This document shows, piece after piece, positions 7,484 through 47,926 of a stretch of 64,000 nucleotides of DNA. This DNA is from Caldisericaceae bacterium. GTDB taxonomy: Bacteria; Caldisericota; Caldisericia; Caldisericales; Caldisericaceae. The notes beneath the pieces were generated by a model. The model had not been told where the DNA came from. It searched no databases and saw only the letters and a program-made list of their open reading frames with translations. Made by a program: the position numbers and the translations under genes. The stretch is from contig JBMFRX010000005.1 of the NCBI GenBank assembly GCA_049967855.1, positions 1 to 64,000 of the forward strand, read 5' to 3'. The first letter of the stretch is position 1; every line of letters begins with the position of its first letter.

Positions 7484-7530
7484 TTCAATCTCCTCTTATT
7501 TTCAAACCACTCATTAAAGGCTTGTCATTC

Positions 7531-8085: not shown

Positions 8086-8175
8086 ACACTAATTATATAA
8101 AATATCACAAAAATATAAAATAAAAGAACAACTGACAAGTTTTTGCAGCAGGAAAGCGAAATTTTGAAATGGAGA

Positions 8176-9528
8176 CTACGCAAGCAGAAGTTTCTTTGCA
8201 ATCTGGTTTTGCTTCTCTGTATATTTTGCTATATCAATGTTTGTAAATTCTCCGTTTTCAATAACCGTGTTTCCGTTTATCATTGAAAAGTCTACCTGCT
8301 TTGCATCGCAGAACACGAGTGCAGCAACTGGGTCTGAAAGTCCTCCTGCAAATTCAAGCCTATCAAGTTTAAAGCCAATGATATCGGCGGCCTTCCCCTC
8401 TTCGATGGAGCCAATCTCCTTTTCCCACTTCAGAACGCTTGCCCCTCCCATTGTTGCAAACTTAAGAACTTCTCTTGCACTAAGTGCATCTGCGCCATAT
8501 TTGACTCTCTGCAAAAGCAGGGCATTCCTTATCTCCATAAGGAAGTTTCCTGTATCGTTCGAAGAGCTTCCGTCAACGGCAAGGCTTATTTTGATGTTTG
8601 TTTTCTTCATAACAGACACAGGCGATATTCCAGAGCCAAGCCTCATATTTGAAGTTGGACAGTGAGCCATTCCAACATTTGCATTGGAGAGTTTCTTAAT
8701 GTCGGCATTATTCAAGTGAACAAGATGAGCAAACCAGACTCTGTCGGAAAGCCAGCCAACGCGTTCCATATAATCAACAGGCCTAACTCCAAACTTCGCT
8801 ATGCAGAAATCGTCTTCATCGTCTGTTTCTGCAAGGTGTGTGTGCATCAAAAGATTGTTTTTCTCGGCATATTTTGCTGTCTCTTTCATAAGGTTCTCGG
8901 TGACAGAGAAGGGCGAGCACGGTGCGAGGGCAACTTTCGACATAGAGAAAGGTTTGGTGTCATGGTAAAGTGAAACCACTCTCTCGTAGTCGGCAAGAAT
9001 CTCATCTTCGGTCTGCACAACAGAATTGGGAGGAAGCCCTCCATCTTTTTTAGAAAGCGACATACTACCTCTGGTTCCGTAGAAACGAACCCCTGTGATC
9101 CTTGCCCCTTCAATTTCTGCATCAAAAAGGTGCGGATGCCCTTTTGGAAAAAGGTAGAGATGATCGGTTGTGGTTGTGACTCCGCTCTTCATAAGCTCAA
9201 GAATAGCAGTTACGGTGGAGATTTTTACGGCTTCTTCATCAATATTCTTCCAGCGCTCATAAAGAAAAACAAGCCAGTCGAAAAGTTTAACATCCTGCAC
9301 TTCCTTCACGGCTCTGAAAAGTGACTGGTAAAAATGGTGGTGAGTGTTTATGAAGCCTGGCATAAAAAGCATCCCTTTGCCGTCTATGACTCTGTCTGCT
9401 TTTGGCTCGGTTCCTGTGCCCATCTGTTTGATTACGTTGCCGTCTATATATATCCAGCCGTTTTTTATTTCATCGAGATTTTTATTGAAAGTGGCTATGA
9501 CATCTGCATTCCTGATTAATGTTGTCAT
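8176..9528 (-). CDS. 8-oxoguanine deaminase-like amidohydrolase
   Basis: INTHHHFYQ, APCSPFSV, HTHLAE, VDGSSSND. Confidence 0.88.
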   Translation of the reverse strand: MTTLIRNADVIATFNKNLDEIKNGWIYIDGNVIKQMGTGTEPKADRVIDGKGMLFMPGFINTHHHFYQSLFRAVKEVQDVKLFDWLVFLYERWKNIDEEAVKISTVTAILELMKSGVTTTTDHLYLFPKGHPHLFDAEIEGARITGVRFYGTRGSMSLSKKDGGLPPNSVVQTEDEILADYERVVSLYHDTKPFSMSKVALAPCSPFSVTENLMKETAKYAEKNNLLMHTHLAETDDEDDFCIAKFGVRPVDYMERVGWLSDRVWFAHLVHLNNADIKKLSNANVGMAHCPTSNMRLGSGISPVSVMKKTNIKISLAVDGSSSNDTGNFLMEIRNALLLQRVKYGADALSAREVLKFATMGGASVLKWEKEIGSIEEGKAADIIGFKLDRLEFAGGLSDPVAALVFCDAKQVDFSMINGNTVIENGEFTNIDIAKYTEKQNQIAKKLLLA

Positions 9529-11819
9529 TTGTTTGCCTCCTTGAGTTTCTCATAAACGAGTTCGCTTGTCGCGGGGATTTTAAAAAGCCTTATTCCCGTT
9601 GCATTGTGAATTGCATTTGTAATTGCAGGTGCAGTTGCCACCATAACTGTTTCTGAGATACCCTTGGAGTTGAAAGGCCCTGTCTCTTCAGGGTTTATGA
9701 CGGGAATCGTTTCAATATTCAAGGGCGCATCTTTGATAGATGGGATAATGTAAGTTGAGAAATTGGGATTCTTGACAATGCCTTTTTCAATTATTACATC
9801 CTCTGTGAGCCCATAGCCCATTCCCATTACGAAGCCTCCTTCAACTTGTGCTTCATATCCCTGCCTGTTCATTACAACGCCTCCGTCAACGGCTTCTGCT
9901 CCTTCGAGAACGGTCACTTCACCTGTCAGAGTGTTTACCTCAACGTAAGCAACGTGAGCTGAGAATGCGAAAATGTGGTGGGGCAGCCCAAAAGCATTCT
10001 TAATTTCAATATCAGCTGTTGGCACCACAAAGTAGCCCTCTGTGACGGGAAGATGCCCTTCCTGCTGAACGAAAATATTTGCTAATTCCGCAAAGCTAAT
10101 AAATTTCTTTGGTTCTTCTTTTGAATAGATGAAGCCTTCTCCGAAATCAAGTGCAGATGGTTCAAGATTCATAACTTTGGAAGCTTTGTCAAGAAGAACT
10201 TTCTTCATTTTTTCTGCGGCGATTATTGAAGCTTTGCCTCCTGTGTAAACACCACGCGAGGCGCTTGTAGGTCCAGAATCAGCCGAAAGGAAAGAATCTC
10301 CCAGGATTACTTTCACATCCTTTATGTCTATGTTCATTTCATCTGCAACTATCTCTGCATATGATGTGCCAATCCCCTGGCCGTAGTCGACTGTACCGAC
10401 GCCAACAGTAAATCCTCCGTCTTCTCTCATTGAAAGGATTGCACCGCCGTAATCAGGCAGGCCCACTCCAAGCCCAGTGCCCTGATAGGTCAGTGCAACA
10501 CCTACTCCCCTTTTGAGCCAGGGTTTATTTGGGTCAGTTGCTTTGCAAAGCTCGCTCCTATTTTTCCATATATCGGATTGTTCAATGGCATCGAGAACCT
10601 GCGGTGTGCCAACGCTTGTTGTGAGTGTATTTCCCATAGGAGTTTTGTCGCCCTTTCTCAAGGCATTCTTTTTCCTGAGCTCTATCGGGTCAATCCCAAG
10701 TTTCTCGGCGATTATATCCATTTGAGTTTCGCAGGCAAAGGTTACCTGAGGTGCTCCAAAGCCTCTAAAAGCGCCTGCTACTCCGTTATTTGTGAAAACG
10801 GCATACCCGTCGATGTGCACATTGTCAACTCTGTATGGACCTGCCGCATGCTCTACTGCAAGATTCAATACAGGGCCACCTAAAGAGGAATAAGCTCCTT
10901 TATCCTGGATAATTTTTGCTTCGACTGCAAGTATTGTGCCATCTTTTTTTACGGCTGTTTTATAGTGCATTATATAGGGATGCCTTTTCCAATATGATAT
11001 TATGGACTCTTCTCTTGACAGTGTTATCTTTACGGGGCGTTTTGTTTTCAGTGCAAGAAGCCCGAGGATGGGCTGTATGGTGAGCTCGTCTTTTCCGCCA
11101 AATGCACCGCCAACAGGATAAGAGACTACCCTGATTTTCTTAGGGTTGATAGAAAGGCACCTTGCAAGTTGAAGCTGGTCTCTCTGAGGATACTGAGAGC
11201 CTGCATAAACGTTTAGATTGCCTTCTTCGTCAACGAAAGCAACTCCGCCTTCGGTTTCAAGAAAAGCATGTTCCTGTCTTCCTGTGTAGTAAGTGTTTTC
11301 AATGATTAGGTCAGCGTTTTTGAAAGCTTCATTTACGTCTCCGCGAGTTACCTCTGTGTGGAGTTGAATATTTCCCTCTTCGTGAACCTTTGGGGAATCT
11401 GGCTCAAGCGCTTTGACAGGGTCGTCAACAATTGGCAAAGGTTCATATTCAACTTGTATAAGGGATGCTGCCTTGTCGGCAATTTCCTCTGACTCTGCAG
11501 CCACCGCTGCTACGGCATCGCCGATATATCTCACTTTGTCGCTGCATAGAACAGGCATATCTGGGACTACTATTCCAAATCCATTAACACCCGGAACATC
11601 CTCGTATGTGATTACTGCTATTACTCCTTTCAGTGCTCTTGCTTTAGAAGTATCGATTTTGAGGATTCTTGCATGAGGGTATTTGGCTCTGAGAATTTTC
11701 CCGTAGAGCATATCTCGCAAAACCAAATCTGACATATATTTTATTGCCCCAGTTGCCTTATCGAGAGCATCGATCCTTTCAACGGATTTTCCAATGTACC
11801 TGGCTTTTTGTTCACTCAT
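9525..11819 (-). CDS. xanthine dehydrogenase family Mo-binding subunit (PucD/XdhA-like)
   Basis: VGGAFGGK, AFRGFGAPQ, GPTSASR, catalytic Glu in KGISE; start MSEQK after GGAGG. Confidence 0.93.
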   Translation of the reverse strand: MSEQKARYIGKSVERIDALDKATGAIKYMSDLVLRDMLYGKILRAKYPHARILKIDTSKARALKGVIAVITYEDVPGVNGFGIVVPDMPVLCSDKVRYIGDAVAAVAAESEEIADKAASLIQVEYEPLPIVDDPVKALEPDSPKVHEEGNIQLHTEVTRGDVNEAFKNADLIIENTYYTGRQEHAFLETEGGVAFVDEEGNLNVYAGSQYPQRDQLQLARCLSINPKKIRVVSYPVGGAFGGKDELTIQPILGLLALKTKRPVKITLSREESIISYWKRHPYIMHYKTAVKKDGTILAVEAKIIQDKGAYSSLGGPVLNLAVEHAAGPYRVDNVHIDGYAVFTNNGVAGAFRGFGAPQVTFACETQMDIIAEKLGIDPIELRKKNALRKGDKTPMGNTLTTSVGTPQVLDAIEQSDIWKNRSELCKATDPNKPWLKRGVGVALTYQGTGLGVGLPDYGGAILSMREDGGFTVGVGTVDYGQGIGTSYAEIVADEMNIDIKDVKVILGDSFLSADSGPTSASRGVYTGGKASIIAAEKMKKVLLDKASKVMNLEPSALDFGEGFIYSKEEPKKFISFAELANIFVQQEGHLPVTEGYFVVPTADIEIKNAFGLPHHIFAFSAHVAYVEVNTLTGEVTVLEGAEAVDGGVVMNRQGYEAQVEGGFVMGMGYGLTEDVIIEKGIVKNPNFSTYIIPSIKDAPLNIETIPVINPEETGPFNSKGISETVMVATAPAITNAIHNATGIRLFKIPATSELVYEKLKEANK

Positions 11820-12694
11820 CTTGCATTCCTCCATCCATTGTTAAAAAGCTCTACTAAGCCTTCATACAGAAGATTGGTGGACATATCTCTCCTGTACTCA
11901 AATGAGCCTCTAATATCTGAAATTGGCGAGACTTCCCTGAAAGCAAGTTTTGAGATATAAGAAATCTTATCAAGCGAGTCCAATGGTTCACTCATCAATG
12001 CGTTCTCTACTATTTTTCCCCTGACAACTGTCGGTGCAACAGCTCCAAAAGAAACCAGAGCCTTTGAGAAATGGTTTTCTGCATCCACCTGCAATTTGGC
12101 TGCAACGCTTATAACTGAGATTGCAATACCTTTTCTCTGACCAATCTTTTTGAAAAAGCCTGCTTCATTTTCCTTGAACTTTGGAATGACTATGTCGACC
12201 AGAAGCTCGTCGTTTCTTTTCACCGTTTTTCCTGGGCCTACGAAAAAGTCCTCCACGTTTATTGTTCTTTCTGAGGCTTTGCTTGCAAGTTTGAGCTTTG
12301 CTTCCGAGACGAAAAGCGCAGGAAGTGAATCGCCTGCAGGTGATGCGTTTGCAATATTTCCGCCAATGGTACCTCTGTTTCTTATTTGAGGCGAGCCGAT
12401 ACTTTTGCAGGCTTGTTGCAGCACAGGCAAAAACTTTTTAATCAAATCGCTTTCAACAATCTGAGTGTGAGTCGTGAGAGGAAGTATGTGTATGTATTCA
12501 CCATCCTCATATATTCCTTTGAGTTCTTTGATTGGGGAAATATCCAAAATTTCATCTTCCTTGAGCATATCTTGCTTCAGGCGAATAAGGATGTCAGTCC
12601 CTCCTGCAATCACTCTTATAGACTCTTTTCTGTCTGATAAAATGGAAAACGCTTCCTCAATTGTATTTGCTTTGAAGTAATCAATATCCTTCAT
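11816..12694 (-). CDS. xanthine dehydrogenase family FAD-binding subunit
   Basis: IAGGTD, QIRNRGTIGGNIANASPAGD, ISDIRGS. Confidence 0.93.
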   Translation of the reverse strand: MKDIDYFKANTIEEAFSILSDRKESIRVIAGGTDILIRLKQDMLKEDEILDISPIKELKGIYEDGEYIHILPLTTHTQIVESDLIKKFLPVLQQACKSIGSPQIRNRGTIGGNIANASPAGDSLPALFVSEAKLKLASKASERTINVEDFFVGPGKTVKRNDELLVDIVIPKFKENEAGFFKKIGQRKGIAISVISVAAKLQVDAENHFSKALVSFGAVAPTVVRGKIVENALMSEPLDSLDKISYISKLAFREVSPISDIRGSFEYRRDMSTNLLYEGLVELFNNGWRNAR

Positions 12695-13505
12695 GAGCAC
12701 TCCTTTCAGTTTTAACATTATCTAAAGAGCCTTTGTTGTTGGCTATAATCTCTGCAAGAATTGCAATAGATATTTCAAATGGCGTATCGCCGTTTATGTC
12801 TATTCCGACTGGGGCAAAAATCTGTTTGATAAATTCGTCCTTAACGCCAAGTTCGGTTGCTTTTGAAAAACACTTGTTGCGCCTGCCCGTGCTTCCTATC
12901 ATCCCAATATAAGAATACTTAACGTCCTTTTGCGCAAGCCCCTGGAGTATATATGGGTCGTCGATTCCGCCAAGAGTTACTATCACCACGATTGCTCCAT
13001 TGCGAATTGGCAAGGCATCAACGCTTTTGTAGATGTCTGCTCCTGTAAAAACCTGAGCGTCAGGAAATCGCTCTCTTGTGGCAAGTTCTTCGCGGTCATC
13101 AACAATTATGAATTCATAGCTTTTTGAGAGCCTTGCGATATCGTAAAGCATCTTCCCCAGATGCCCTGCTCCAAATATCACCAATTGCTGTGGAGAGCCA
13201 ATGTATTCAAGGTAAATCTCGATTTCGCCGCCGCATACCATTCCAAGTGACGTTTCCTCGCCCTCTTTCAGTATATGTTTGCGGAATGCTGTTCCGTGTG
13301 TTTTGAACAATTCGGCCGAAATCTCTATAGCCTCTTTTTCTATTCCGCCGCCTCCGACTGTACCATAGGTAGTTCCATCAGGCAAAATTATCATTTTGAA
13401 GCCAGACTTGCCTGATGTAGAATCCTGTGCATTCACAACTATTGCAAGCACAAATTCACTGTGATTGTTGATTAGTTCAACCATTTTTTCATAAATCTGA
13501 TACAT
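12681..13505 (-). CDS. XdhC/CoxI family Moco chaperone
   Basis: GTVGGG, LGMVCGG, IFGAGH, YIGMIGS, APVGIDI, EISIAILAEII. Confidence 0.93.
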   Translation of the reverse strand: MYQIYEKMVELINNHSEFVLAIVVNAQDSTSGKSGFKMIILPDGTTYGTVGGGGIEKEAIEISAELFKTHGTAFRKHILKEGEETSLGMVCGGEIEIYLEYIGSPQQLVIFGAGHLGKMLYDIARLSKSYEFIIVDDREELATRERFPDAQVFTGADIYKSVDALPIRNGAIVVIVTLGGIDDPYILQGLAQKDVKYSYIGMIGSTGRRNKCFSKATELGVKDEFIKQIFAPVGIDINGDTPFEISIAILAEIIANNKGSLDNVKTERSAHEGY

Positions 13506-14484
13506 CTATAAAACCTCCTTCGCCCATCTCGAGGATTTCGTCCCTTGAGAGTTTGTAATCTGATAGTACAATTGGTAGGATTCTGTGAAAACTTGTGTTC
13601 TTTTTGGCCAATGCAACGCCGCTAGGAAGCCCCAAAATAGGAGTTTTGTTAAGATAGGCAACAACGATATTTTGTCCTGGCCAGATAGGCAAGCCGTACT
13701 TCACTACGTCTGCTCCAAGCTTTTTGATGCTTTCCACGGTTCTGTCGTCAGGGTCGACGCCCATTCCTCCTATGAATACAACAAGGTTTGCCCCATTTGA
13801 CAGAGCGTTTAATGTCTTGCTAACTATCACTTCAGGGTTGTCAGGAAGGATTTCTCTTTCGCTTGTCTCCTGTCCTAACCCTCTCAGATACTCTGCAACA
13901 TTAAGGCTGACAGTTTCGGTTCGCCTGCCTTCGATGAATTCGTTTCCTACTGGAAACAAAGCTATCGTATGCTTCTTTATCGTATAAAGGTCGAAAATGG
14001 GAAAATAATCTGCTATAACTTTCCTTGCCTTGTCCATAACAGATACGGATATCTCTTTTGGCATAACTTTGCCTATTGCAACAGGAGTACCCTTCCTTAC
14101 GAAAGCAAGGTGTCTCTTTGAGGCAATACTTATATCGTCGATATCATTGAGCTTTCTTAACCCAATCTTGTTTACAAGAAATATGCCATCTGACTCTGCA
14201 AATATCTTGACCCTTGATTCAGAAGGCTCAGAAATGGAAAGGTTGCTTTGAATTGATGAAAGCATTATTTCTTTTGCGGCAGCGTCTTCGTGGATGTGAG
14301 ACTCATCGGTCTCGTCAAGTATCCAGACATAGTGCCTCCCGATAGAAAGGAGAAGCGGGATATCTGATTCTTGAATGATATGCCTTGCTCTAAAGGCAAC
14401 TTCGCGTTTGACTCCGCCGATTATGTTTGTGATATCTGTCCCAAGAGCCATTCCTATTGCTTCTTCTGTTTTTACTCTTTTCAT
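13489..14484 (-). CDS. molybdopterin-binding (MoeA/CinA-like) protein
   Basis: GNE, GGMGVDPDD, PIWPG motifs; probable start MKRVKTEEA. Confidence 0.8.
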   Translation of the reverse strand: MKRVKTEEAIGMALGTDITNIIGGVKREVAFRARHIIQESDIPLLLSIGRHYVWILDETDESHIHEDAAAKEIMLSSIQSNLSISEPSESRVKIFAESDGIFLVNKIGLRKLNDIDDISIASKRHLAFVRKGTPVAIGKVMPKEISVSVMDKARKVIADYFPIFDLYTIKKHTIALFPVGNEFIEGRRTETVSLNVAEYLRGLGQETSEREILPDNPEVIVSKTLNALSNGANLVVFIGGMGVDPDDRTVESIKKLGADVVKYGLPIWPGQNIVVAYLNKTPILGLPSGVALAKKNTSFHRILPIVLSDYKLSRDEILEMGEGGFIDVSDL

Positions 14485-14485
14485 A

Positions 14486-15094
14486 TCAATGCTCTCTTGA
14501 GGACAGATTATACAGAGAAAGCACTTTTTCGTAATCCTCTTTAGTATCCATATCAATAAGGATGGATTCATCTTCAACAGGTAAAAGTTTTACCAAATCC
14601 CTATCACTGAATAGAATATCCTTAAGGGTAGTTTTTGCAGGGTCTGCTTTTAAGATTCGTTGTGCAGTAGCCTGTGGAATGATTACTGGATGGCCTTTCC
14701 TTCCATTTGTGGTGGGAATCAATATTTCTCCCTCTGAATAGTGCTCTATTAATGTGTTTATTATGGCAGTATTCACAAGGACATTATCAGAAAGCCCTAT
14801 CAGAGTGTCTTTGCAGTTGGCAACTGCTACGCCCTTCTGTATTGAGGAAAACATTCCCATTTCGTAATTATCGTTTACGGCAATGGTTAATTTGTCTGAA
14901 TTAAAAGTTTTATTAATAAATGCTTTCACCATTTCTGCATTTTTCCCCAACACAAGAACGACTTCCTGGAGTTTCGAAGACAGGTACTCATTAAGAAGTA
15001 TTTCTATCACTGTTTTGTTGCCAATTTTCAATAGGATTTTCGGCTCCCCCATCCGCTCCGATTTCCCTGCAGCAAGCAAAACCCCTGTTATCAT
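14486..15094 (-). CDS. molybdenum cofactor cytidylyltransferase (MocA-like)
   Basis: LAAGKSERMG, GMFSSI, GHPV, DMDT; adjacent to xdh genes. Confidence 0.88.
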   Translation of the reverse strand: MITGVLLAAGKSERMGEPKILLKIGNKTVIEILLNEYLSSKLQEVVLVLGKNAEMVKAFINKTFNSDKLTIAVNDNYEMGMFSSIQKGVAVANCKDTLIGLSDNVLVNTAIINTLIEHYSEGEILIPTTNGRKGHPVIIPQATAQRILKADPAKTTLKDILFSDRDLVKLLPVEDESILIDMDTKEDYEKVLSLYNLSSREH

Positions 15095-15097
15095 TGT

Positions 15098-15565
15098 TTA
15101 GCTTTCCTTACTTACTCTCTCGACAGCTTTTATAATCTTAATGTATCCAGTGCATCTGCAAAGGTTGCCTGAAAGCCCTTCCCTGATTTCCTCTTCGTTT
15201 GGATGTGGATTTTTGGAGAGCAGAGAGTATGTTGATACTACAAACCCTGGAGTGCAGAAGCCGCACTGTACAGCGCCTTCTTCAACAAAAGCCTTCTGAA
15301 TAGGATGCGGGTTTTGAGGAGTCCCAATACCTTCAATTGTAGTTATCTTGGCTTTGTCGGCCTGAGCAGCAAGAACCAGGCACGATGTTACGGCTTCACC
15401 ATTCATAATGACGGTACAGGCTCCGCATTCGCCTTTATCGCATCCTTTCTTGGTACCTGTGAGGTTCAGTTTGTCGCGAAGAACCTGTAAAAGAGTCCAG
15501 TTTGATGGAACATCAAGTGAATAATGTTTTTCGTTTATATCCAGGCTAATGGAAACGCTTTTCAA
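15098..15565 (-). CDS. xanthine dehydrogenase family 2Fe-2S subunit
   Basis: GCDKGECGACTV, QCGFCTPG, NLCRCTGY. Confidence 0.95.
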   Translation of the reverse strand: MKSVSISLDINEKHYSLDVPSNWTLLQVLRDKLNLTGTKKGCDKGECGACTVIMNGEAVTSCLVLAAQADKAKITTIEGIGTPQNPHPIQKAFVEEGAVQCGFCTPGFVVSTYSLLSKNPHPNEEEIREGLSGNLCRCTGYIKIIKAVERVSKES

Positions 15566-15570
15566 TCAAA

Positions 15571-16806
15571 TCACCTCGTCTCAGAAAAGAAATGAACTTC
15601 GTCATTTAATTTCTCTTTCATTCTTATTGCATCAACAGGACATACTTGCATGCACATTGCACAACCAGTGCACTTTTCTTCATCTACAGAAGGAGTTCTT
15701 GTTTCCGAGTTCCACTCTATTGCCATATGGCCACCATCATGGCAGGCTGCATAGCAGAGACCGCAACCAATGCATTTGTCTGCGTTGATTTCTGAGTGAG
15801 TTTCGGGCTTTGGAAGGTCTTCCTGATTTTTAATATTCGGCAGAGCTTTGCCTACAATGTCGCTTGGACTGCTGAAGCCCATTTCGTCAAGATAATGTTC
15901 AAAACCACTCTTAAGGTCTCTTATTGTCCTGAATCCATAGTGCATAGGAAGCGTGCAGAATTGAACATTCTGTGCGCCAACAGCCATAAATTCAACAGCA
16001 TCTTTCCAGTTAAAAGCCCCGCCATTGCCAGATATTACTATGTCGACATTCTTGGCAATTTCTGCAATCGTTCTTAAGGTTAAGGGCTTTATCGCAGGTC
16101 CTGATAGTCCTGAGTAGGAACCTTCGCCAAATAGGGTCGGGTATGGTTCAAAAGTCTTGATATCGACACCAAGGAGAGATGGCACAGTATTGCTTGCAGT
16201 TATCCCGTCGGCCCCACCTCTTTTGACAGCTTTTGCAACTTCGACTATGTCGGTCACCTGAGGGGTGATTTTGATTAAGACAGGCGTAGTGTCAGCGGCT
16301 TCTTTTACCCAGCGTGTGACTTTTTCAGTGGCCTCTATGCTTTGAGCAAGCATCTTTCCTGCCTCTTCGCCCATACTGCCCTGTGGGCAACTGAAACTGC
16401 ACTCAATGAGGTCGGCACCTGCTTTTTTGAGTCGCCAGACGAGATTTTGCCAATCCTCTTTGCTTGCTCCCATTATTGAAGCTGCAATCATCCTGTCGGG
16501 GAATTCTTTCTTCAGGTACTTAATTCGCTCTTCTATATCGTTTATGTGATACTGAGAGATAAGGTCAATGTTTCCCAGGCCAACGACTTTCTTGCTCATT
16601 GGACCAAAAGATGACATCATTGGATTTTTCAAGTTCACTGGGTTGTTTTCAACGGAAGTTGTCTTAAGGATCACACCAGCCCAACCTGCTCTTAAACCAT
16701 TTTCCGCTATTTCAAGTTCGTCAGTTGGAGGTGCAGCCGAAAGAATAAAAGGGCTTTCGAGGTGCAATCCCAGGAAATTTATGGATAGATCTCTTCTCTT
16801 ATACAT
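15571..16806 (-). CDS. preA: dihydropyrimidine dehydrogenase subunit PreA-like (FMN, 2x4Fe-4S)
   Basis: FSCPQ catalytic Cys, KITP, SNT, GLSGPAIKP, C-terminal CIGCGLC and CTGCAMC. Confidence 0.88.
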   Translation of the reverse strand: MYKRRDLSINFLGLHLESPFILSAAPPTDELEIAENGLRAGWAGVILKTTSVENNPVNLKNPMMSSFGPMSKKVVGLGNIDLISQYHINDIEERIKYLKKEFPDRMIAASIMGASKEDWQNLVWRLKKAGADLIECSFSCPQGSMGEEAGKMLAQSIEATEKVTRWVKEAADTTPVLIKITPQVTDIVEVAKAVKRGGADGITASNTVPSLLGVDIKTFEPYPTLFGEGSYSGLSGPAIKPLTLRTIAEIAKNVDIVISGNGGAFNWKDAVEFMAVGAQNVQFCTLPMHYGFRTIRDLKSGFEHYLDEMGFSSPSDIVGKALPNIKNQEDLPKPETHSEINADKCIGCGLCYAACHDGGHMAIEWNSETRTPSVDEEKCTGCAMCMQVCPVDAIRMKEKLNDEVHFFSETR

Positions 16807-18067
16807 TTTCTCCTCCTGAAAGATATTGCAAAATATTCTGTGCTGCTTCTTTGCCGTCGTGGACAGATTCAACGATTGTGCTTGCCCCTCTCACTATGTC
16901 GCCGCCAGCAAATACGCCTTTGACAGATGTCATATAGTTCTCATCAACTTTGATAAGGTGATTTTCGGTTTTTTCAAGCTCAGGGAAATAGTTAGATGCT
17001 TTCTGTCCTATGGCTATTATGACTGCATCGAGCGGGATAACAAAATCCGAATCTGGCACTTCCTCAAAGGTGCTTCTTCCAGATGCATCAGGAGCGCCAA
17101 GCCGTGCCCTCCTTACAAGAATCCCTTGCACTTTGTCAGAGCCTCTAACTTCAAGCGGTATGGCAAGGAATTGGAAGGTAACTCCCACGTTGGTTGCCTC
17201 GTCTATTTCGTCCTTGAATGCTTTTAGTTCTTTTAATCCTCTGCGGTATATAACTTCAACATCTCTATCTCGGTTTTCAAGTTTAAGGACTGTGGCAATT
17301 TCAATTGCAACATTACCTCCGCCTATTACGCCCACTCTTTTCCCGAGCCCTGTTTTGAGGCCAGACTTGGCAATTTTGAGAAGTTCCCTTGCGTAGTATA
17401 CGCCTCTCAGGTTTGAATTGATGTTTGGCAAATCAAGTTCGCCAGTGAGTCCAGTGGAAATAAAAACAGCGTCAAACCCCTTTTCAATCTCGGAAAGACT
17501 TGTAATTTTCTTGTCTTTCACTTCACTTACGAAGTTCCTTAGAATAAATTTAGTTTCCTTCTCTGTGATTGCAGTGTCAAGTCGAGCCGCTGAAATCTCA
17601 TGCACTGGAATTCCGCCAAGGTTTTTCTTCTCAAATATGACGGTTGAAACACCCTCTTCTCCAAGTTCTCTTGCACAAGCCAATCCCGCAGGGCCTCCGC
17701 CAATGATTGCAACTTTTTTTGCTCCCATCTCAGGCTTTGCAAAATTCTTGTAGACATCTGTTGAATCTGTGACAAACCTGTGGAGTTCACGAATTCTAAT
17801 TGGTGAGTCGATTTTTGCGCGTGTGCAGGCAGACTGGCAAAAACTTTCTTCGGGACAGACACGCCCGCATGTTTCAATTAATGGATTAGCTTCAACCAAA
17901 ATCTCATGTGCGCCATTGAGGTTTCCTGTACGGATTGATTGAATAAACTCAGGGACTGGCACATGAGCTGGGCAAGCTTTCTCACAAGGGGCATCATAGC
18001 AGTAAAGACATCTCTCTGCCTCTATGAGGGCTTCTTCTTTTGAAAGGCTTCTCTTCTGTTCTTCCAT
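16799..18067 (-). CDS. preT: dihydropyrimidine dehydrogenase subunit PreT-like (GltD-type FAD/FeS)
   Basis: RCLYCYDAPCEKACP, CGRVCP, GGGPAG, GGGNVA, FAGGD; overlaps preA. Confidence 0.85.
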   Translation of the reverse strand: MEEQKRSLSKEEALIEAERCLYCYDAPCEKACPAHVPVPEFIQSIRTGNLNGAHEILVEANPLIETCGRVCPEESFCQSACTRAKIDSPIRIRELHRFVTDSTDVYKNFAKPEMGAKKVAIIGGGPAGLACARELGEEGVSTVIFEKKNLGGIPVHEISAARLDTAITEKETKFILRNFVSEVKDKKITSLSEIEKGFDAVFISTGLTGELDLPNINSNLRGVYYARELLKIAKSGLKTGLGKRVGVIGGGNVAIEIATVLKLENRDRDVEVIYRRGLKELKAFKDEIDEATNVGVTFQFLAIPLEVRGSDKVQGILVRRARLGAPDASGRSTFEEVPDSDFVIPLDAVIIAIGQKASNYFPELEKTENHLIKVDENYMTSVKGVFAGGDIVRGASTIVESVHDGKEAAQNILQYLSGGENV

Positions 18068-18097
18068 TATTCCTCCTTGAATGCAATTGTGGATATT

Positions 18098-18126
18098 ATT
18101 ATATATTATTGTCTATAAACTGTCAA
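18098..18126 (-). promoter_or_regulatory. consensus promoter TTGACA-N17-TATAAT for the preT-xdh operon
   Basis: Perfect -35 (18121-18126, inside the rsmI 3' end) and -10 (18098-18103). Confidence 0.8.
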
Positions 18127-18823
18127 CATCATCCGACGATTCTTCAACTGCTGAAGATTCAAGAGCTCCAACAACCACAATCACCTCGCCTTTGAGAGTT
18201 CGATTGGCTAGTTCTGCAAGGACGGTGCTTGTTTTTCCTCTGATGACCTCTTCGTAGATTTTGGTAAGCTCTCTTGCAATTGCAACAGGCCTGTCACCAA
18301 GTTCTGTTAAGATATCCTCCAAAATACTTTTCACTCGATACGGTGATTCAAAGAAAATGATTGGTCCGTAAAACCATTTTAGGTCGCTTATGATTTTGCG
18401 CCGTTTGCCAGTTTTTCGCGGGAGAAAGCCGTAGAAAAGGAACTTATCTGTGGGAAAACCTGAAAGGAGAAGTGCAGGGACAAATGAAGTTGGTCCAGGA
18501 AGTGCCTCCACCTTAATACCATTGGCTATACACTCTCTTATTAAAAGATATCCTGGGTCAGAAATGCCAGGAGTGCCTGCATCAGTCACGAGTGCCATAT
18601 TTTTGCCACTCAAAAGCTCTTGGACAATTCTTTTGAGTTTTGCTTCTTTTGTATATGAATGAAAGCTTATTACGGGAGTAGAAATTTCGTATTTGTTTAA
18701 CAAATTCCTGGTTACTCGAGTATCCTCTGCAAGAATTGAATCGCAGGATTTCAGGATATCGAGTACTCTGAGCGTTATGTCTCTAAGATTGCCAATTGGA
18801 GTAGGGCATATATAAAGGCTCAT
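18113..18823 (-). CDS. rsmI: 16S rRNA C1402 2'-O-methyltransferase
   Basis: PTPIGNLRDIT, AEDTR, DAGTPGISDPG, ARELTK. Confidence 0.97.
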   Translation of the reverse strand: MSLYICPTPIGNLRDITLRVLDILKSCDSILAEDTRVTRNLLNKYEISTPVISFHSYTKEAKLKRIVQELLSGKNMALVTDAGTPGISDPGYLLIRECIANGIKVEALPGPTSFVPALLLSGFPTDKFLFYGFLPRKTGKRRKIISDLKWFYGPIIFFESPYRVKSILEDILTELGDRPVAIARELTKIYEEVIRGKTSTVLAELANRTLKGEVIVVVGALESSAVEESSDDVDSL

Positions 18824-18828
18824 TTATT

Positions 18829-24294: not shown

Positions 24295-24296
24295 TT

Positions 24297-41635: not shown

Positions 41636-41887
41636 ATGGCTGTAGGTGCAGTTACAAAAAAAGTGTCAGTTTTGATTCTTACCGATGTGTATATTATTAG
41701 AGGCTACATCAATAGTCCAGCAAATATGCGCCTTTCAGATTCAATCAACAAATTCCTGAGAGAAACTCAATTCTTAGCAGTTACTGATGCAGAAATCACC
41801 GTAGTTTCAACAGGTGCCTTGCTTGAAAAGCGCGACTTTGTGCTTGTAAACAAAGACCTGGTAAGGGGACTTTCTCCTAACGAGTAG
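41636..41887 (+). CDS. small hypothetical protein (DUF6812-like)
   Basis: IRGYI...RLSD...FLAVTDA...FVLVNKD; GGGAGG RBS. Confidence 0.7.
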   Translation: MAVGAVTKKVSVLILTDVYIIRGYINSPANMRLSDSINKFLRETQFLAVTDAEITVVSTGALLEKRDFVLVNKDLVRGLSPNE

Positions 41888-43133
41888 TTTTATCGCCGTT
41901 ATTTAATAAGGCTTCCTTCAGGCTGTCTATTGTTGGCTCTATTACAACAGGGCTCTTCACAGCCTTTAGTGCACTGTCAACATCCTTTAGTCCATTTCCT
42001 GTTACAATAACAACAACTTTGCTTTTCTTTGATATCGTTTCGCTTCTTAACGCTTTCAAATATCCCGCAAAACCAGCCGCACCAGCAGGCTCTGCAAAAA
42101 TGCCTTGAACTGTACCAAGTAATTTTATCGCCTCAAGAATTTCATTGTCAGACACCGATACCCCAAATCCCCCCGAATTCTTTATATCTCTCACTGCCAT
42201 CAAGCCATTGCGAGGAACACCCACAGAAATGCTGTCAGCTATGGTTCGAGGATTTTCGATATTATGAATGATTCCATCCCCATTGACAGCCTCAACAATC
42301 GGGCTGCAGCCTTCTGCCTGGACAGCAACAAGCCTTGGCATCTTGCTTATGAAGCCAAGTTTATACAAATCATAAAAGCCTTTGTTTACTCCTGAGATGA
42401 TGCATCCATCACCTACGGAAACAAAAACATAGTCTGGAACATCAAAATCTAATTGCTCGGCAATTTCAAGCGAGACAGTCTTTTTTCCTTCTACCATATA
42501 TGGGTTAAATGAAGTGTTACGGTTGTACCAACCGAAATTCTCAGTTGCTTCAATTGACAAGTCGAAAGCCTCGTCGTAGCTCCCGTTTACTGCGAAAACC
42601 GTTGCTCCAAAGACGAGCAGCTGTGCAAGCTTAGCCTTTGGGGCAGTTTTTGGAACAAAAATATAATTCTTGAGCCCGAGTGAAGCAGATGCCCCAGCAA
42701 GAGAAGAAGCTGCATTTCCAGTTGAAGCACACGTTAGAGTGTCAATGTTCAGTTCCTGCGCCTTAACAACAGCAATAGCTGACGCTCTGTCCTTGAGAGA
42801 AGCTGTTGGATTTCTACCATCGTCTTTTATCCAGAGCGAGCTAACTCCAAGGTATTCTCTTACCCTTTGTGCTGTGTAGAGCGGTGTCCAGCCAACCTGC
42901 AATGGGCCAACAAAATTTTCTTGCTGAACAGGTAAAAGTGGAAGATATCTCCACATTGAATACTCTCTGTTTTCAGAAAGAGTCTTCTTAGTGAAGAATT
43001 GTCTTATCCTGTCGTAATTGTAATTTACCTCAAGGATGCCATTGTTGCCGCAGTGAGGACAGGTATACCTTACCTCATCTGGTTTGTATTCCCTGCCGCA
43101 TACAAGGCACTTCAAAGAGACAATGTTATCCAT
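41877..43133 (-). CDS. threonine synthase-like PLP enzyme (fold type II)
   Basis: N-terminal CLVC/CPHC, NPTASLKDR (PLP Lys), ASTGNAA, VGDG, AEPAG, TGNGLKD. Confidence 0.88.
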   Translation of the reverse strand: MDNIVSLKCLVCGREYKPDEVRYTCPHCGNNGILEVNYNYDRIRQFFTKKTLSENREYSMWRYLPLLPVQQENFVGPLQVGWTPLYTAQRVREYLGVSSLWIKDDGRNPTASLKDRASAIAVVKAQELNIDTLTCASTGNAASSLAGASASLGLKNYIFVPKTAPKAKLAQLLVFGATVFAVNGSYDEAFDLSIEATENFGWYNRNTSFNPYMVEGKKTVSLEIAEQLDFDVPDYVFVSVGDGCIISGVNKGFYDLYKLGFISKMPRLVAVQAEGCSPIVEAVNGDGIIHNIENPRTIADSISVGVPRNGLMAVRDIKNSGGFGVSVSDNEILEAIKLLGTVQGIFAEPAGAAGFAGYLKALRSETISKKSKVVVIVTGNGLKDVDSALKAVKSPVVIEPTIDSLKEALLNNGDKTTR

Positions 43134-44084
43134 TTATTTCTCCTCTCGCGAAAAAGGCAGACCAAGTTCTCTTGGCACACCGAGGTGTTTGAAACGAACA
43201 ATAAGTGTTGATATTATTACAACAATTAAAGTGAGGAAGTAAGGTTGCATTGAAAGTAAAGAAGAAGGAATTGTTGTGCCTGATGCCTGCAGGAGGAATT
43301 GCAACGAATCAATACCACCGAAAAGGTAAGCTCCAAATATAGCTATAATCGGATCCCACATTGCAAATATGACAAGGGCGACTGCAATCCATCCTCTTCC
43401 TGCGGTAATGCCATCAAGCCAGAATGGTGCGTATCCAATTGTTAGATAGGCTCCGCCAGCTCCAGCGAGTAATCCTCCAAAAAATGTCCAGAAATATCTT
43501 GTTGCGTACACATCCACACCCATAGCGTCTGCTGCAACAGCATTTTCGCCTACTGCACGCAAATGTACGCCGACCTTCGTTTTATAAAGAATATACCACA
43601 TTGCAATTGCAAGAACGTATGAAAAATAGACAATCATATCCTGTTTGAAAAAGATGTTTCCTATTACAGGTATTTTAGAAAGAATCGGAATACTTATTTT
43701 TGAGAAACCGTTCTTCAGCTGAAGGTTGACGAATTTCTGTCCGTAGAAATTTGTAATTCCAAGACCAAAAATGGTCAAGGCAAGGCCGCTAACAACCTGT
43801 TTGCCCTGTAGCGTGATTGTTATAAATGCGTGTATGAGAGAGGCAAGCCCTCCCGCAAGCATTCCAGCGAGAAAACCAAGGTAAGGATTCTTTGTTAGAT
43901 ATGTTACGATAAAGCCTATAAAAGCTCCAATAATCATCATCCCTTCAATGCCGAGGTTCATAACGCCCGAGCGCTCGGTGAATATCTCGCCAACAGTTGG
44001 GAAAAGTATAATTGTCCCAGAACGAACGGCAGTGTAGAAGAGATTTGTGAGAATAGTCAATAGAGATGGGCTTAACATTTTCAT
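43134..44084 (-). CDS. nucleoside/purine ABC transporter permease
   Basis: ERSGVMNLGIEG, RAVGEN, GRGWIAVA. Confidence 0.92.
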   Translation of the reverse strand: MKMLSPSLLTILTNLFYTAVRSGTIILFPTVGEIFTERSGVMNLGIEGMMIIGAFIGFIVTYLTKNPYLGFLAGMLAGGLASLIHAFITITLQGKQVVSGLALTIFGLGITNFYGQKFVNLQLKNGFSKISIPILSKIPVIGNIFFKQDMIVYFSYVLAIAMWYILYKTKVGVHLRAVGENAVAADAMGVDVYATRYFWTFFGGLLAGAGGAYLTIGYAPFWLDGITAGRGWIAVALVIFAMWDPIIAIFGAYLFGGIDSLQFLLQASGTTIPSSLLSMQPYFLTLIVVIISTLIVRFKHLGVPRELGLPFSREEK

Positions 44085-45151
44085 TGCCTCCTTTTTGTTA
44101 CATAGTGAACTGAATAACGCAGGAAGATTTCGCTGCCGATGAGGGCAAAAAGTATAGCGCTCTCAATCACAGAAACAATACCAAATGGAACCTGCATAGT
44201 TATCTGAATCTGATAACCTCCTGCAGCAAGTGCTCCTAAGAGTAGAGAAACAAAAACTGCCGTGAAGGGCTCAAGGTAAGAAAGCCAGGCAGCTATAATG
44301 GCAGTGTAGCCGTAATCAGGGTTTATTTCGATTTGCATCAGGTGTATAACGCCAGAAACCTGCGCCATCCCTGCAAGCCCAGCGAGGGCACCACTTATTA
44401 GCATTGCTATGATTATGTTTCTCTTAACATTGATTCCTGCGTAGAGAGCAGCATCCTTGCTTCCGCCAATAATCCTCATCTCGTAGCCAAGTCTTGTTTT
44501 CTTGATAATATACCAGATTATTAGGGCAGCAACTATTCCAAATATCAAGCCAAGGTGGACTCTTGAATTTGGGATAATTTTGTAGAGCTGCGCGTTATTC
44601 GGGAACATTTTCGAAAGCGGAAAGCCATGACTTGTTGGGTCTCTCCAAGGACCGTACATAAGGTACTTCAGGAAGTAGAGCGCTACATAGTTGAGGAGCA
44701 GAGTACTTATTACTTCGTTTACATCCCAGTACGCTTTCAACACCGCAGGGATAAAAGCCCAAAAGGCACCACCTATCATTCCAGCAATGACCATTATCAG
44801 AAGAAACAAAGGCTTCGACGTTGAAGGTGGGAGAAAAAGTGCAAAATATGCACTTGCAATAGCTCCTACTATGTACTGGCCATATGCTCCAATGTTCCAG
44901 AAGTTCATCTTGAAAACCAGTATCAAGCCAACGGAGATTAGTATCAATGGAGTCGCAAAGACAAGTGTTTCTGTGAAAGTATATTTACTTCCAAAAGAAC
45001 CTATTATTATTGCCTTGAAAGCTGACAAGGGATTTATTCCTGCAAGTGCTATTGCAATAGCTCCAATAATCAAGCCAATCAAAACTGATATCAAAGGAAT
45101 AAGCACTCTTAATTTAGTGGGAGTGTTTTCTCTTTTCTCAAATTTAAGCAT
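44081..45151 (-). CDS. nucleoside/purine ABC transporter permease
   Basis: WNIGAYGQ, NEVISTLLLNY, GYTAI. Confidence 0.92.
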   Translation of the reverse strand: MLKFEKRENTPTKLRVLIPLISVLIGLIIGAIAIALAGINPLSAFKAIIIGSFGSKYTFTETLVFATPLILISVGLILVFKMNFWNIGAYGQYIVGAIASAYFALFLPPSTSKPLFLLIMVIAGMIGGAFWAFIPAVLKAYWDVNEVISTLLLNYVALYFLKYLMYGPWRDPTSHGFPLSKMFPNNAQLYKIIPNSRVHLGLIFGIVAALIIWYIIKKTRLGYEMRIIGGSKDAALYAGINVKRNIIIAMLISGALAGLAGMAQVSGVIHLMQIEINPDYGYTAIIAAWLSYLEPFTAVFVSLLLGALAAGGYQIQITMQVPFGIVSVIESAILFALIGSEIFLRYSVHYVTKRRQ

Positions 45152-46682
45152 AGGAAGCTCCTTTCGCATTTTCAGTTGACTTTGAACCGCCCATCAGTAA
45201 GCCAATTTCATCAATATTTGCGTTTTTGCCTTCAAATATACCTGTCATTTTTCCGCCGTACATCACACCGATTCTGTCTGATATCATTAGCAGTTCGTCG
45301 AGGTCCTCAGAGATAAGAAGCACTGCCGCGCCATTGTCGCGTGCCTCAAGCAATTTTTTACGTACGAATTCTGTTGAACCTATATCAAGGCCTCGTGTAG
45401 GGTGAACAGCTATCAAGAGGACAGGGTCTTCTTTTATTTCCCTTGCAAGCAGGAGCTTCTGCATATTTCCGCCTGAAAGCAGCTTTACAGGAGCATCTAT
45501 TCTGGGGACGACGATGTTGAACTCTTCAACGAGTCTGTTTGTGTATTCCTGGGCTTGTCTGAAGTCTATCAGGCCTTTTGTCCCAACTGGCCTCCTCTTG
45601 TAGCAACGGAGTATAGCATTTTCAACAGACGATAAAGTTGGAACAAGGCCAGTCCTTAAACGATCTGCTGGTATGTAGTTTACCTTCAAGGCAATAATTC
45701 TTGAGGGCGAATGGTTTGTAATGTCAGCACCATTTAGAAATAATCTTCCTGAATAAGCTTTTCTCAGCCCGGTAATAACTTCTGCAAGCTCTTCCTGACC
45801 GTTACCTGCCACACCTGCTATGCCGAAAACCTCGCCGCTATTAACCGAGAAACTCAAACCATTGACTGTCTTGATGCCTCTATTGTTATATGATTCAAGT
45901 TTCTCAACTCTCAGAACTTCTTTTCTATTTTCAATTTGCTTTATATCAAATCTGAATAGCACTTCTCGCCCTACCATCATTTGAGCAAGTTCGTGCTCAT
46001 TGGTTTCGCTCCTATTAACGGTACCAACAACCTTACCCTTTTTGAGTACTGTGATCCTGTCTGAAATATTAAGGACTTCCTCAAGCTTGTGGCTTATGAA
46101 AACTATTGATTTTCCGTCTGATCTTATTTTGTTTATTATCGAAAACAATGAATCTATTTCTTTTGGAGTGAGGACAGCCGTTGGTTCATCAAGAATCAAT
46201 ATTTTCGCGCCTCTGTAAAGCATCTTAATTATCTCGGCTCTTTGCTGCTCTCCGACTGATAATTGCCAGATTTTCGAAAAAGGGCTAATTTGCAGATTGT
46301 ATCTTTCGGAGATGTCGGAGATGCTTTTTGCAATTTTTTTGCTATCTACAACAAATCCTTGCCTCTGAAAGCCAAGCACTATATTCTCAGCAACAGTCAA
46401 AGTATCCACAAGCATAAAGTGCTGGTGAATCATACCAATGCCGAGTTTCATAGAATCGACTGGTGAATTGATATCTGCTTTTTTGCCATCAATGTAAATG
46501 TCTCCTTCATTAGGATAATAAAGTCCGTCGAGGACATTCATCAGAGTTGTCTTGCCAGCGCCGTTTTCACCGAGAAGGGTATGAACCTCTCCTTCATATA
46601 GGTCGAAATTAACATGGTCATTTGCTACAACCCCTGGAAAATGCTTTGTTATGTTTTTCGCTTCAAGAACCGTTTTTCTCAT
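45144..46682 (-). CDS. CUT2-type ABC transporter ATPase (two ABC domains)
   Basis: GENGAGKT, LSVGEQQR, DEPTAVL, LSGGNMQK, PTRGLD. Confidence 0.95.
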   Translation of the reverse strand: MRKTVLEAKNITKHFPGVVANDHVNFDLYEGEVHTLLGENGAGKTTLMNVLDGLYYPNEGDIYIDGKKADINSPVDSMKLGIGMIHQHFMLVDTLTVAENIVLGFQRQGFVVDSKKIAKSISDISERYNLQISPFSKIWQLSVGEQQRAEIIKMLYRGAKILILDEPTAVLTPKEIDSLFSIINKIRSDGKSIVFISHKLEEVLNISDRITVLKKGKVVGTVNRSETNEHELAQMMVGREVLFRFDIKQIENRKEVLRVEKLESYNNRGIKTVNGLSFSVNSGEVFGIAGVAGNGQEELAEVITGLRKAYSGRLFLNGADITNHSPSRIIALKVNYIPADRLRTGLVPTLSSVENAILRCYKRRPVGTKGLIDFRQAQEYTNRLVEEFNIVVPRIDAPVKLLSGGNMQKLLLAREIKEDPVLLIAVHPTRGLDIGSTEFVRKKLLEARDNGAAVLLISEDLDELLMISDRIGVMYGGKMTGIFEGKNANIDEIGLLMGGSKSTENAKGASYA

Positions 46683-46713
46683 CTTCTCACCTTAGCCTCT
46701 GTTTATAAAAATA

Positions 46714-46739
46714 TGCCCCGTTGGTTGATTAACGGGGCA
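46714..46739 (-). terminator. stem-loop between the BMP and ATPase genes
   Basis: TGCCCCGTT-loop-AACGGGGCA followed by TATTTTT on the minus strand. Confidence 0.6.
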
Positions 46740-46753
46740 CGATAATTACAAAG

Positions 46754-47860
46754 TTAAGAGCCGCTCTTTGGGATTGTTCCTACTACTCCTTGAACAAACC
46801 ACTGCAAACTGAGCTGGTCTGCGTCTGAAAGCCTTTCGCCAGCTTTGACCATAAGTTTCCCACTCTGGTCGTAGATTGGCCCATCAAATGGGTCATACTT
46901 ACCATCAAGAATATCTTGTTTTCTCTTGTTAACATAGTCCTGGACGTTTGCTGGAACAAAGGAGGCCATTGGAGCTAAGTCGACGATACCGTCTTTCATG
47001 CCACCCCAATATGAATCTGACTTCCACGTACCGTTATGAACTGCCTCAAGCACTTGTTTGTAGTAAACCCCCCAGTGCCAGATACGAGATGTCAAAACAG
47101 CTTTTGGCGCCGCAGAGGACATATCGTTGTCATAGCCTATGCCGTATTTGCCTGCTTTTTCTGCTTCGACAAGAGGTGCTGGGTCGTCAACTCCGCTTGC
47201 AATAATATCAGCACCGCTCGCAAGGAAAGTGTCAGCAGCCTGAGCCTCTTTGGTTGGGTCAAACCATGAGTTGGTGTAAACCACGTGAACTTCTGCTTTT
47301 GGATTTACTTCTCTTACGCCAATGGTGAAGGAGTCGATTTCTCTAATAACCTCAGGCGTAGAGAATGGTGCCACGAAGCCAATATAATTAGACTTTGTCA
47401 TCATTCCTGCGACAAGTCCTGACAAATAATCAGGCTGTTCCATTCTGCCGAAATAATTGCCCATATTTGGCAGGGTTTTGTAGCCTGAACAGTGTTCAAA
47501 GATTACATCAGGATAATCTTTAGCAACATTATATGTAGGATCCATAAAGCCAAAACTTGTTGTAAAGATAACCTTGTACCCCTGGTTAGCATAGTCCCTG
47601 AGGACTTTCTCGCATTCAGAGCCTTCTGGCACGTTCTCAGAATAAGCAGTCTGAACATAAGGAAGCTGCTGCTCGAGATAGAGCCTTCCGTCATCGTGTG
47701 CCTGGGTCCACCCGCCATCATTCTTTGGGCCAACATAAATAAAGGCAACTTTAATCTTTTCCTCAGGTTTAGTAGCTTGCTTTGTACTGCAGCCAGCAAA
47801 AACCGAAGAAATCATTACCACTAAAAGCAACACTGCTAAGACTTTTAGTTTCTTGCTCAT
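46754..47860 (-). CDS. BMP family purine/nucleoside-binding lipoprotein
   Basis: Lipobox FAGC, DGGWTQAHD, TTSFGF, WFDP. Confidence 0.93.
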   Translation of the reverse strand: MSKKLKVLAVLLLVVMISSVFAGCSTKQATKPEEKIKVAFIYVGPKNDGGWTQAHDDGRLYLEQQLPYVQTAYSENVPEGSECEKVLRDYANQGYKVIFTTSFGFMDPTYNVAKDYPDVIFEHCSGYKTLPNMGNYFGRMEQPDYLSGLVAGMMTKSNYIGFVAPFSTPEVIREIDSFTIGVREVNPKAEVHVVYTNSWFDPTKEAQAADTFLASGADIIASGVDDPAPLVEAEKAGKYGIGYDNDMSSAAPKAVLTSRIWHWGVYYKQVLEAVHNGTWKSDSYWGGMKDGIVDLAPMASFVPANVQDYVNKRKQDILDGKYDPFDGPIYDQSGKLMVKAGERLSDADQLSLQWFVQGVVGTIPKSGS

Positions 47861-47926
47861 ACTTACCTCCTATTTAGTTTTTTAAAAGACTGATAGAATT
47901 GCTAACTTAATTTTCAAACACGTTAT

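Follow-up and report, generated by a model that had tools for sequence, protein, structure and literature searches.

In anaerobic urate breakdown, 2,8-dioxopurine (yanthine) is reduced by YgfK, an NADPH-dependent 2,8-dioxopurine reductase (Liu et al., bioRxiv 2025.04.24.650524), and SsnA was found to be necessary for the YgfK reaction (Li et al., 2025, PMC12507026). UacX, a PydA homologue of C. difficile, was assayed and reduces yanthine in place of YgfK; it has no FAD/NAD(P)H partner and was assayed with methyl viologen, and any PF01180 neighbour of ssnA was given the label UacX (Li et al., 2025, PMC12507026). In C. sporogenes the route depends on SelD (Liu et al., bioRxiv 2025.04.24.650524). 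An earlier study described dehydrogenase X1, a clade of the dihydroorotate dehydrogenase (DHODH)/dihydropyrimidine dehydrogenase (DPD) superfamily that occurs with hyuA, ygeW, ygeY, ssnA and xdh (Barba et al., 2013, PMC4016543). PreA does not occur in the text of Liu et al. (bioRxiv 2025.04.24.650524). Here, we analysed a 64,000-nucleotide stretch of DNA (the window; positions 1 to 64,000 of contig JBMFRX010000005.1, assembly GCA_049967855.1, from a Caldisericaceae bacterium), in which an operon for an Xdh-family enzyme is headed by the following two genes:

16799..18067, minus strand: PreT-like FAD/2x[4Fe-4S] NAD(P)H-oxidising subunit, 422 aa (family profiles, YRR motif)
15571..16806, minus strand: PreA with an FMN barrel and 2x[4Fe-4S], 411 aa, with Ser in place of a uracil-binding Asn (Ser-type; NF006183 435.7 bits, cut-off 335)

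We put a probability of roughly 0.8 on the reading that this PreT and Ser-type PreA together form an NAD(P)H-dependent 2,8-dioxopurine reductase that would do the job of YgfK in anaerobic urate breakdown. We infer this substrate, and every activity discussed below, from the observed gene order, residues, clade membership, co-occurrence and absence of ygfK.

The evidence begins with the substrate pocket. The initial annotation had noted that PreA reads NIDLIS and ECSFSCPQ where DPD/PreA enzymes normally have NIELI(S/T) and ELN(L/F)SCPH, and the alignment confirms the two motifs, at residues 79-84 and 135-142, opposite NIELIS and ELNLSCPH of pig DPD. DPD positions 609, 611, 668, 670, 671, 736 and 737 correspond to N79, D81, S137, S139, C140, N206 and T207 of PreA, so that N609, S670, C671, N736 and T737 are kept, while N668 is replaced by Ser, E611 by Asp and H673 by Gln. 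Because E. coli PreA (NMEQIA/ECNFSCPQ) already has the C, F and Q of the second motif, these are not peculiar to this protein, and what remains of the proposed altered pocket is the N668S and E611D pair, which is diagnostic. The uracil-O4-binding Asn668 that defines PreA and DPD is Ser137 here. In a DPD-fluorouracil complex, ND2 of N668 contacts O4, and N609, T737 and N736 read N1, O2 and N3 (table in PMC10970046). The YgfK/UacX-SsnA step yields 5-ureido-dihydrouracil among its products (PMC12507026), from which 2,8-dioxopurine would map on uracil with its N9 at the O4 position. The sole changed direct side-chain contact is on the edge where uracil and 2,8-dioxopurine differ.

The same substitution appears in the described reductases. 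In C. difficile, the DHO_dh protein of the ssnA cluster (UacX-type; identified at locus L194 by organism, layout and domains, accession Q181U4 not being confirmed) reads NTELWS/ELSTHY, and its S123 aligns with S137 of PreA. YgfK reads NTEWST/TLSTMHGC, and its S226 aligns with UacX S123 at a probability of 90%. Predicted models put Ser137 as the last residue of barrel strand 4 and the YgfK serine directly after strand 4, and a fold comparison shows a DPD-like fold for the N-terminal domain of YgfK; searched against PDB sequences, this domain gave no match. A serine at the DPD-668 position is therefore firmly assigned by alignment to the UacX-type proteins and probably present in YgfK as well.

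The serine is not a chance change, since ECSFSCPQG is kept in 120 of the 120 best PreA homologues, with identities reaching down to about 61%; among named relatives, those of Caldisericum species come nearest (86-87% identity). Asp, Ser and Cys occupy the three diagnostic positions in 63 of 64 loci inspected from the homologue search. A phylogeny of PreA had been proposed as a check, and in the resulting tree, with the motif columns removed and YgfK left out as too distant, the Asp/Ser-type rows form one branch inside the PreA/DPD group (99% SH-aLRT). This branch takes in Bacillota forms ending in SCPH and single-chain PreT-PreA fusions of 830-860 aa, and record titles of Ser-type PreA name Caldisericota, Bacillota, Bacteroidota/Ignavibacteria, Zixibacteria, Eisenbacteria, Krumholzibacteria, WOR-3 and deltaproteobacteria, among others. 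Placing UacX and Ser-type PreA in one clade was rejected (p-AU 0.0007), which points to convergence. Apart from this branch, UacX-like paralogues reading ELPTHCPH occur in Caldisericota family f7 (L421 and L422, with a tandem pair in L421), and two more DPD-like clades in Bacillota (L304-L312 and L313-L318; NLELFT/ELNVSCPM and ELNFGCPHP) lie mostly beside Xdh-family genes and are perhaps reductases for other N-heterocycles.

The source genome (Caldisericaceae-like, G000; rated 99.99% complete) lacks ygfK, a point that the initial annotation had proposed to check: TIGR03315 matched GltD-like halves only, and a profile of the YgfK N-terminus, which recovered four of four known carriers, had no match. 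PreA is the sole PF01180 protein of the genome, and by form it is not a YgfK, that is, an approximately 1000-aa single chain that scores over the TIGR03315 cut-off and carries the YgfK N-terminal domain. Several other steps of the route are represented, beginning with a second purine operon in the window (41877-52446, minus strand):

51115..52446, minus strand: SsnA, first gene of the second operon (TIGR03314 548 over 456; NF005540 573 over 444)
49360..51087, minus strand: adenine deaminase (TIGR01178 over cut-off)
47983..49359, minus strand: allantoinase-like cyclic amidohydrolase, candidate for the HyuA step (TIGR03178 374 over 358; TIGR02033 270 under 393)
43134..47860, minus strand: BMP/PnrA-type binding protein, ABC ATPase and two permeases, likely for nucleoside uptake (family scans)
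41877..43133, minus strand: extra threonine-synthase-like pyridoxal phosphate (PLP) enzyme, candidate for the YgeX (lyase) step (family scans, context)

The allantoinase-like gene holds the same slot in loci L005 and L020, and the ssnA-ade-allantoinase-like order is kept in genomes G005 and G006, where the transporter is on the opposite strand. A threonine synthase (ThrC)-like enzyme adjoins ssnA or preTA in 26 of 49 loci; the second ThrC homologue of this genome sits by aspartokinase and asd on contig C2. Contig C11 holds a carbamate kinase, YgeY (over cut-off) and a YgeW-like carbamoyltransferase; the HyuA, YgeW and carbamate kinase homologues score under their family cut-offs, in positions that match the expected slots. 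Contig C2 also encodes an XdhD orthologue (56123-58447) that shares 41% identity with E. coli XdhD, falls into one group with it (support 100%) and keeps Glu606, the residue proposed for yanthine formation (Li et al., 2025, PMC12507026). SelD and YqeC, the clostridial selenium machinery, were not found in the genome, nor was a guanine deaminase over cut-off.

In several phyla, genomes with Ser-type PreA tend to have ssnA as well and seldom ygfK. In two Thermoanaerobacterales nearly all the pieces lie together: the G004 cluster runs thrC-like, PLP enzyme, serine hydroxymethyltransferase, FAD subunit, Mo subunit, deaminase, XdhD-like, ghxQ, ssnA, ade, allantoinase-like, ygeY, ygeW-like, preT and preA, with identities to this genome of 61% (Mo subunit), 69% (deaminase), 69% (XdhD-like, to C2), 62% (preT) and 78% (preA), and the G016 cluster is near-identical to it, the two spanning 46-78% identity to this genome. 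At least 42 of 49 loci (mostly Bacteroidota/Ignavibacteria) have ssnA, ygeY or ygeW within 10 kb, and none of the 49 has ygfK. Since the fetched windows were widened towards known ssnA genes, such locus counts are biased, and we rely on counts by genome. Among 50 chosen carrier genomes (50 of 72 loci, longer contigs favoured), ssnA is matched at E <1e-60 in 49 (above its cut-off in 31), and a fragment of the YgfK N-terminus in one. The 93 Caldisericota genomes, with at least 50% identity as a proxy for the PreA motif, divide into 57 with a PreA-like protein and ssnA, five with the PreA-like protein only, three with ssnA only and 28 with neither, and ygfK was found in none of the 93. In a Bacillota sample not selected for the trait (401 genomes, 86 with ssnA), ssnA is present in 21 of 21 genomes with Ser-type PreA vs 2 of 19 with Asn-type PreA, counting 42 of 43 over-cut-off genomes (G004 omitted; one Cys-type and one truncated row fall outside both classes); the two ssnA-bearing Asn-type genomes have a UacX-type or YgfK gene beside their ssnA. 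Even among 33 Ser-type loci chosen for having no ssnA nearby, 29 have ssnA elsewhere in the genome, with a weak YgfK fragment in one.

From this evidence we propose a mechanism. PreT would take a hydride from NADPH, by analogy with DPD, and NADPH is likely its donor given the YRR motif, which is that of YgfK and GltD; E. coli PreT has ARE, and YRR is also present in some Asn-type partners. Electrons would pass from FAD through four [4Fe-4S] clusters to FMN in PreA, where FMNH2 would give a hydride to C6 and Cys140 would protonate C5. N79, N206 and T207 would hold the N1/O2/N3 edge common to 2,8-dioxopurine and uracil, while Ser137, in place of the uracil-O4-binding Asn, may free room for the N9-H of the fused ring. 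Supply of 2,8-dioxopurine from urate is likely the task of the XdhD orthologue on contig C2, SsnA would open the reduced product and pull the reaction, and the later steps would fall to the allantoinase-like enzyme, the YgeW-like carbamoyltransferase together with carbamate kinase, YgeY and a PLP enzyme. For the YgeX (DpaL) step, E. coli YgeX has no match in the genome, which encodes three PALP proteins, two of them ThrC-like and the third a PLP enzyme of about 490 aa. The latter is distantly CysK-like and under all NCBIfam cut-offs, recurs in these clusters (G000:C16:13919-15406, L029:12467-13924, L330:11141-12541; 57% identity between G000 and L029), and is a second candidate for this step.

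The remainder of the operon bears on how purines would enter the route. The gene order given by the initial annotation (preT, preA, 2Fe-2S, mocA, Moco, xdhC, FAD, Mo and 8-oxoguanine deaminase, overlapping or abutting) is exactly what the sequence contains, with junctions of -17 to +5 nt between the nine minus-strand genes and a clear ribosome-binding site before most; PreA starts at the ATG at 16806, so that preT and preA overlap by 8 nt. The single consensus promoter holds up equally well, being the sole perfect sigma-70 site among 33 matches in 7400-19000, and a strict TT(G/A)AC(A/T)..TA(T/A/C)AAT site lies 31-37 nt upstream of preT in 11 of 22 related loci. The promoter and the other genes are:

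18098..18126, minus strand: sigma-70-type promoter, TTGACA-17-TATAAT, 12/12 match, overlapping the end of rsmI
15098..15565, minus strand: 2Fe-2S subunit of the Xdh-family enzyme (family profiles)
14486..15094, minus strand: MocA-like molybdenum cofactor nucleotidyltransferase (142 bits, under the cut-off of 186)
13489..14484, minus strand: MoCF_biosynth-domain protein (family profiles)
12681..13505, minus strand: XdhC/CoxI maturation factor (family profiles)
11816..12694, minus strand: FAD subunit of the Xdh-family enzyme (family profiles)
9525..11819, minus strand: Mo subunit of the Xdh-family enzyme (nearest model PucD, 688 bits, under the cut-off of 784)
8176..9528, minus strand: 8-oxoguanine deaminase family protein (608 bits, cut-off 532; HxHxxQ and PCS motifs of 3HPA/7WW2 retained)

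The operon Mo enzyme, the deaminase and the molybdenum cofactor genes likely feed purines in, towards urate. The Mo subunit retains the catalytic Glu, its nearest solved relative is nicotinate dehydrogenase, and in the tree it joins C. difficile XdhD in a single group with weak support (92). It has Asp, Leu, Leu and Ser at the columns that we take to be E802, R880, F1009 and A1078 of xanthine oxidoreductase, a numbering mapped via an XdhB-type row, and at the first two of these it is unlike known xanthine dehydrogenases (XDH) and DOPDH. Either the operon enzyme or, more likely, the XdhD orthologue on contig C2 would be the urate-reducing one. As for the deaminase, an 8-oxoguanine deaminase family gene directly adjoins ssnA in many UacX-type Bacillota clusters (L148-L160), and so is a recurring member of the route. 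Elsewhere in this 1.3-Mb genome, which has four Mo hydroxylases and no selD, are two more Xdh-family clusters (G000:C2:22703-30210 and G000:C1:13759-22507), one with an AllG-like protein, a cyclase and an NCS2 permease, and the other with a cytosine-deaminase-like gene and a BMP transporter. In the window, 23617-30548 on the plus strand presumably encodes, from sequence likeness, a YheO-like regulator followed by aconitase, isocitrate dehydrogenase and two ATP citrate lyase subunits.

Several observations weigh against assigning 2,8-dioxopurine to PreTA. HyuA, YgeW and YgeX are not recognised at their family cut-offs, and ssnA lies 33 kb from preTA in this genome, outside the operon. No ssnA, ygeY or ygeW is nearby in 12 of 26 long loci; no ssnA was found in four of the 33 genomes (metagenome-assembled) of the loci chosen for having none nearby, and five Caldisericota, one of them 95% complete, have PreA without ssnA. 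The samples include kin, so that the counts are not independent and all co-occurrence is inflated. YgfK and Ser-type PreA occur together in two Bacillota (G054, G320), where that PreA is Cys-less (ECSISFPH); the Cys-less form is seen at L126:6988-8208 and L128:6905-8131, with no adjoining preT and in clusters that also carry YgfK. The chemistry is not uniform either, in that UacX-type proteins (ELSTHY) have no catalytic Cys. The direct profile alignment of PreA with the YgfK N-terminus was not significant (probability 9.6%) and out of register, so that the YgfK serine depends on the two-step alignment and strand order, the weakest link in the argument. Further serine-bearing clades exist, namely fused relatives of 800-860 aa with NCDNVS/EYSLSCPQGG (P0192, P0223, P0225, P0254) and relatives with Asp at N736 (ECSMSCPQ, CAIDT; P0146, P0151, P0162).

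Three other explanations were weighed. The one that survives best, though we hold it unlikely, is that PreTA is a dearomatising reductase in this route but acts on a different bicyclic compound (xanthine, 6,8-dioxopurine, urate or one with a pterin-like ring), or a broad enzyme that takes both pyrimidines and 2,8-dioxopurine. The divergence of the operon Mo enzyme at the E802 and R880 columns and its kinship with nicotinate dehydrogenase would fit this, as would the substitute enzymes in the later steps, and Ser137 could still bind O4. Set against this, the true SsnA and YgeY of the genome, and its XdhD with Glu606, speak for the 2,8-dioxopurine route, and YgfK accepted only 2,8-dioxopurine of three isomers (Liu et al., bioRxiv 2025.04.24.650524). 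The operon deaminase speaks in the same direction, scoring 434 bits with 3HPA and 430 with 7WW2 (named 8-oxoguanine deaminase) vs 223 with 2PAJ, which we take to be isoxanthopterin deaminase.

A less probable explanation is that PreTA is an ordinary uracil/thymine dehydrogenase in which N668S is tolerated, co-regulated with purine genes in general nucleobase catabolism. PreA does pass the NF006183 cut-off, retains C671, N609, S670, N736 and T737, is 41% identical to E. coli PreA with DPD as its nearest fold, and shares its genome with a cytosine-deaminase-like gene. Yet the lone dihydropyrimidinase candidate scanned, in the window, scores 270 against a TIGR02033 cut-off of 393, and no beta-ureidopropionase or hydantase was found in the genome (TIGR01879, none over cut-off). 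Asn-type PreA has a hydantoinase as neighbour in 14 of the 19 Bacillota cases and ssnA in none. Eight Caldisericota hold an additional Asn-type copy beside the Ser-type one, which fits separate jobs for the two, and an ordinary uracil enzyme would leave about 60 ssnA-bearing Caldisericota without a reductase. Finally, that PreA stands in for a missing dihydroorotate dehydrogenase in pyrimidine synthesis is very improbable: it is the genome's only PF01180 protein, but PyrF (orotidine monophosphate decarboxylase) was not found in the genome, many carriers have a separate short PF01180-sized homologue, and the tree places PreA with PreA/DPD.

If PreTA is a 2,8-dioxopurine reductase, it fills the missing reductase step in many ssnA-bearing, ygfK-free genomes, and the urate pathway of 2025 then takes in Caldisericota, Ignavibacteria and further anaerobes from the environment. 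With the two-residue signature NID...ECSFSCP, likely purine reductases could be told apart from true PreA, a distinction of importance to surveys in which preTA is counted as a reductase of uracil or 5-fluorouracil, and Ser137 here vs Asn in E. coli PreA offers a clean structure-function case. A version driven by NAD(P)H and free of selenium could also be of use in strains engineered to degrade urate. A wider joint reading, to which we give even odds, is that purine-ring reduction arose three times from the DHODH/DPD barrel (in YgfK, in UacX and in a PreTA-derived clade, split or fused at 830-860 aa), each time with Ser for the uracil-O4 Asn, so that one residue marks the switch from uracil to dioxopurine. 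The clade would then define a urate route that does without selenium, in which an allantoinase-like and a threonine-synthase-like enzyme take the places of HyuA and YgeX. Such a route would exist in many anaerobic phyla without cultured members, whose database entries name the reductase uracil dehydrogenase.

How this PreTA relates to the known systems can now be stated. The suggestion that it replaces YgfK in an undescribed variant stands as far as the absence of ygfK, the presence of SsnA, YgeY and XdhD, and the co-occurrence with ssnA are concerned; "undescribed" is too strong, because Li et al. (2025) had already assayed UacX in that role. What is new is the PreT-partnered clade, the urate pathway and its YgfK-free form being published. 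Our literature search, with most subscription papers outside its reach, found no account of a Ser-type, PreT-partnered enzyme, and the UacX label on every PF01180 neighbour of ssnA may hide the clade. Like C. difficile UacX, this PreA has a DHO_dh barrel with a 4Fe-4S tail, Ser at DPD 668 and Asn at 609 and 736, and is linked to ssnA clusters without ygfK. Unlike it, PreA shares only 28.6% identity with UacX, which has ELSTHY without the catalytic Cys and about 360 aa, and it stands on a separate branch; ELSTHY, that length, the lack of a PreT partner and a place in the UacX clade are all foreign to it. Dehydrogenase X1 is described as branching off ahead of PydA/PreA (Barba et al., 2013), in agreement with the UacX branch; the Ser-type clade sits with PreA and is probably distinct from X1. 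With E. coli YgfK (DOPOR), PreTA shares the pathway slot, the NAD(P)H-FAD-FeS-FMN layout, a DPD-like fold (N-terminal in YgfK) and a likely Ser at the end of strand 4, whereas YgfK is a single 1032-aa chain with its FMN domain first and no significant sequence match to PreA. With E. coli PreT/PreA and pig DPD it shares the SCP catalytic loop and the uracil N1/O2/N3 contacts, and with E. coli PreTA the two-subunit layout, but it differs in N668S, E611D, its own clade and its purine-cluster context. PreT and PreA correspond to the two halves of an enzyme that has been solved as one chain. Ser-type PreTA would thus work like YgfK and UacX while belonging to neither, and departs from PreA at one defining residue; it is most likely a third form of 2,8-dioxopurine reductase.

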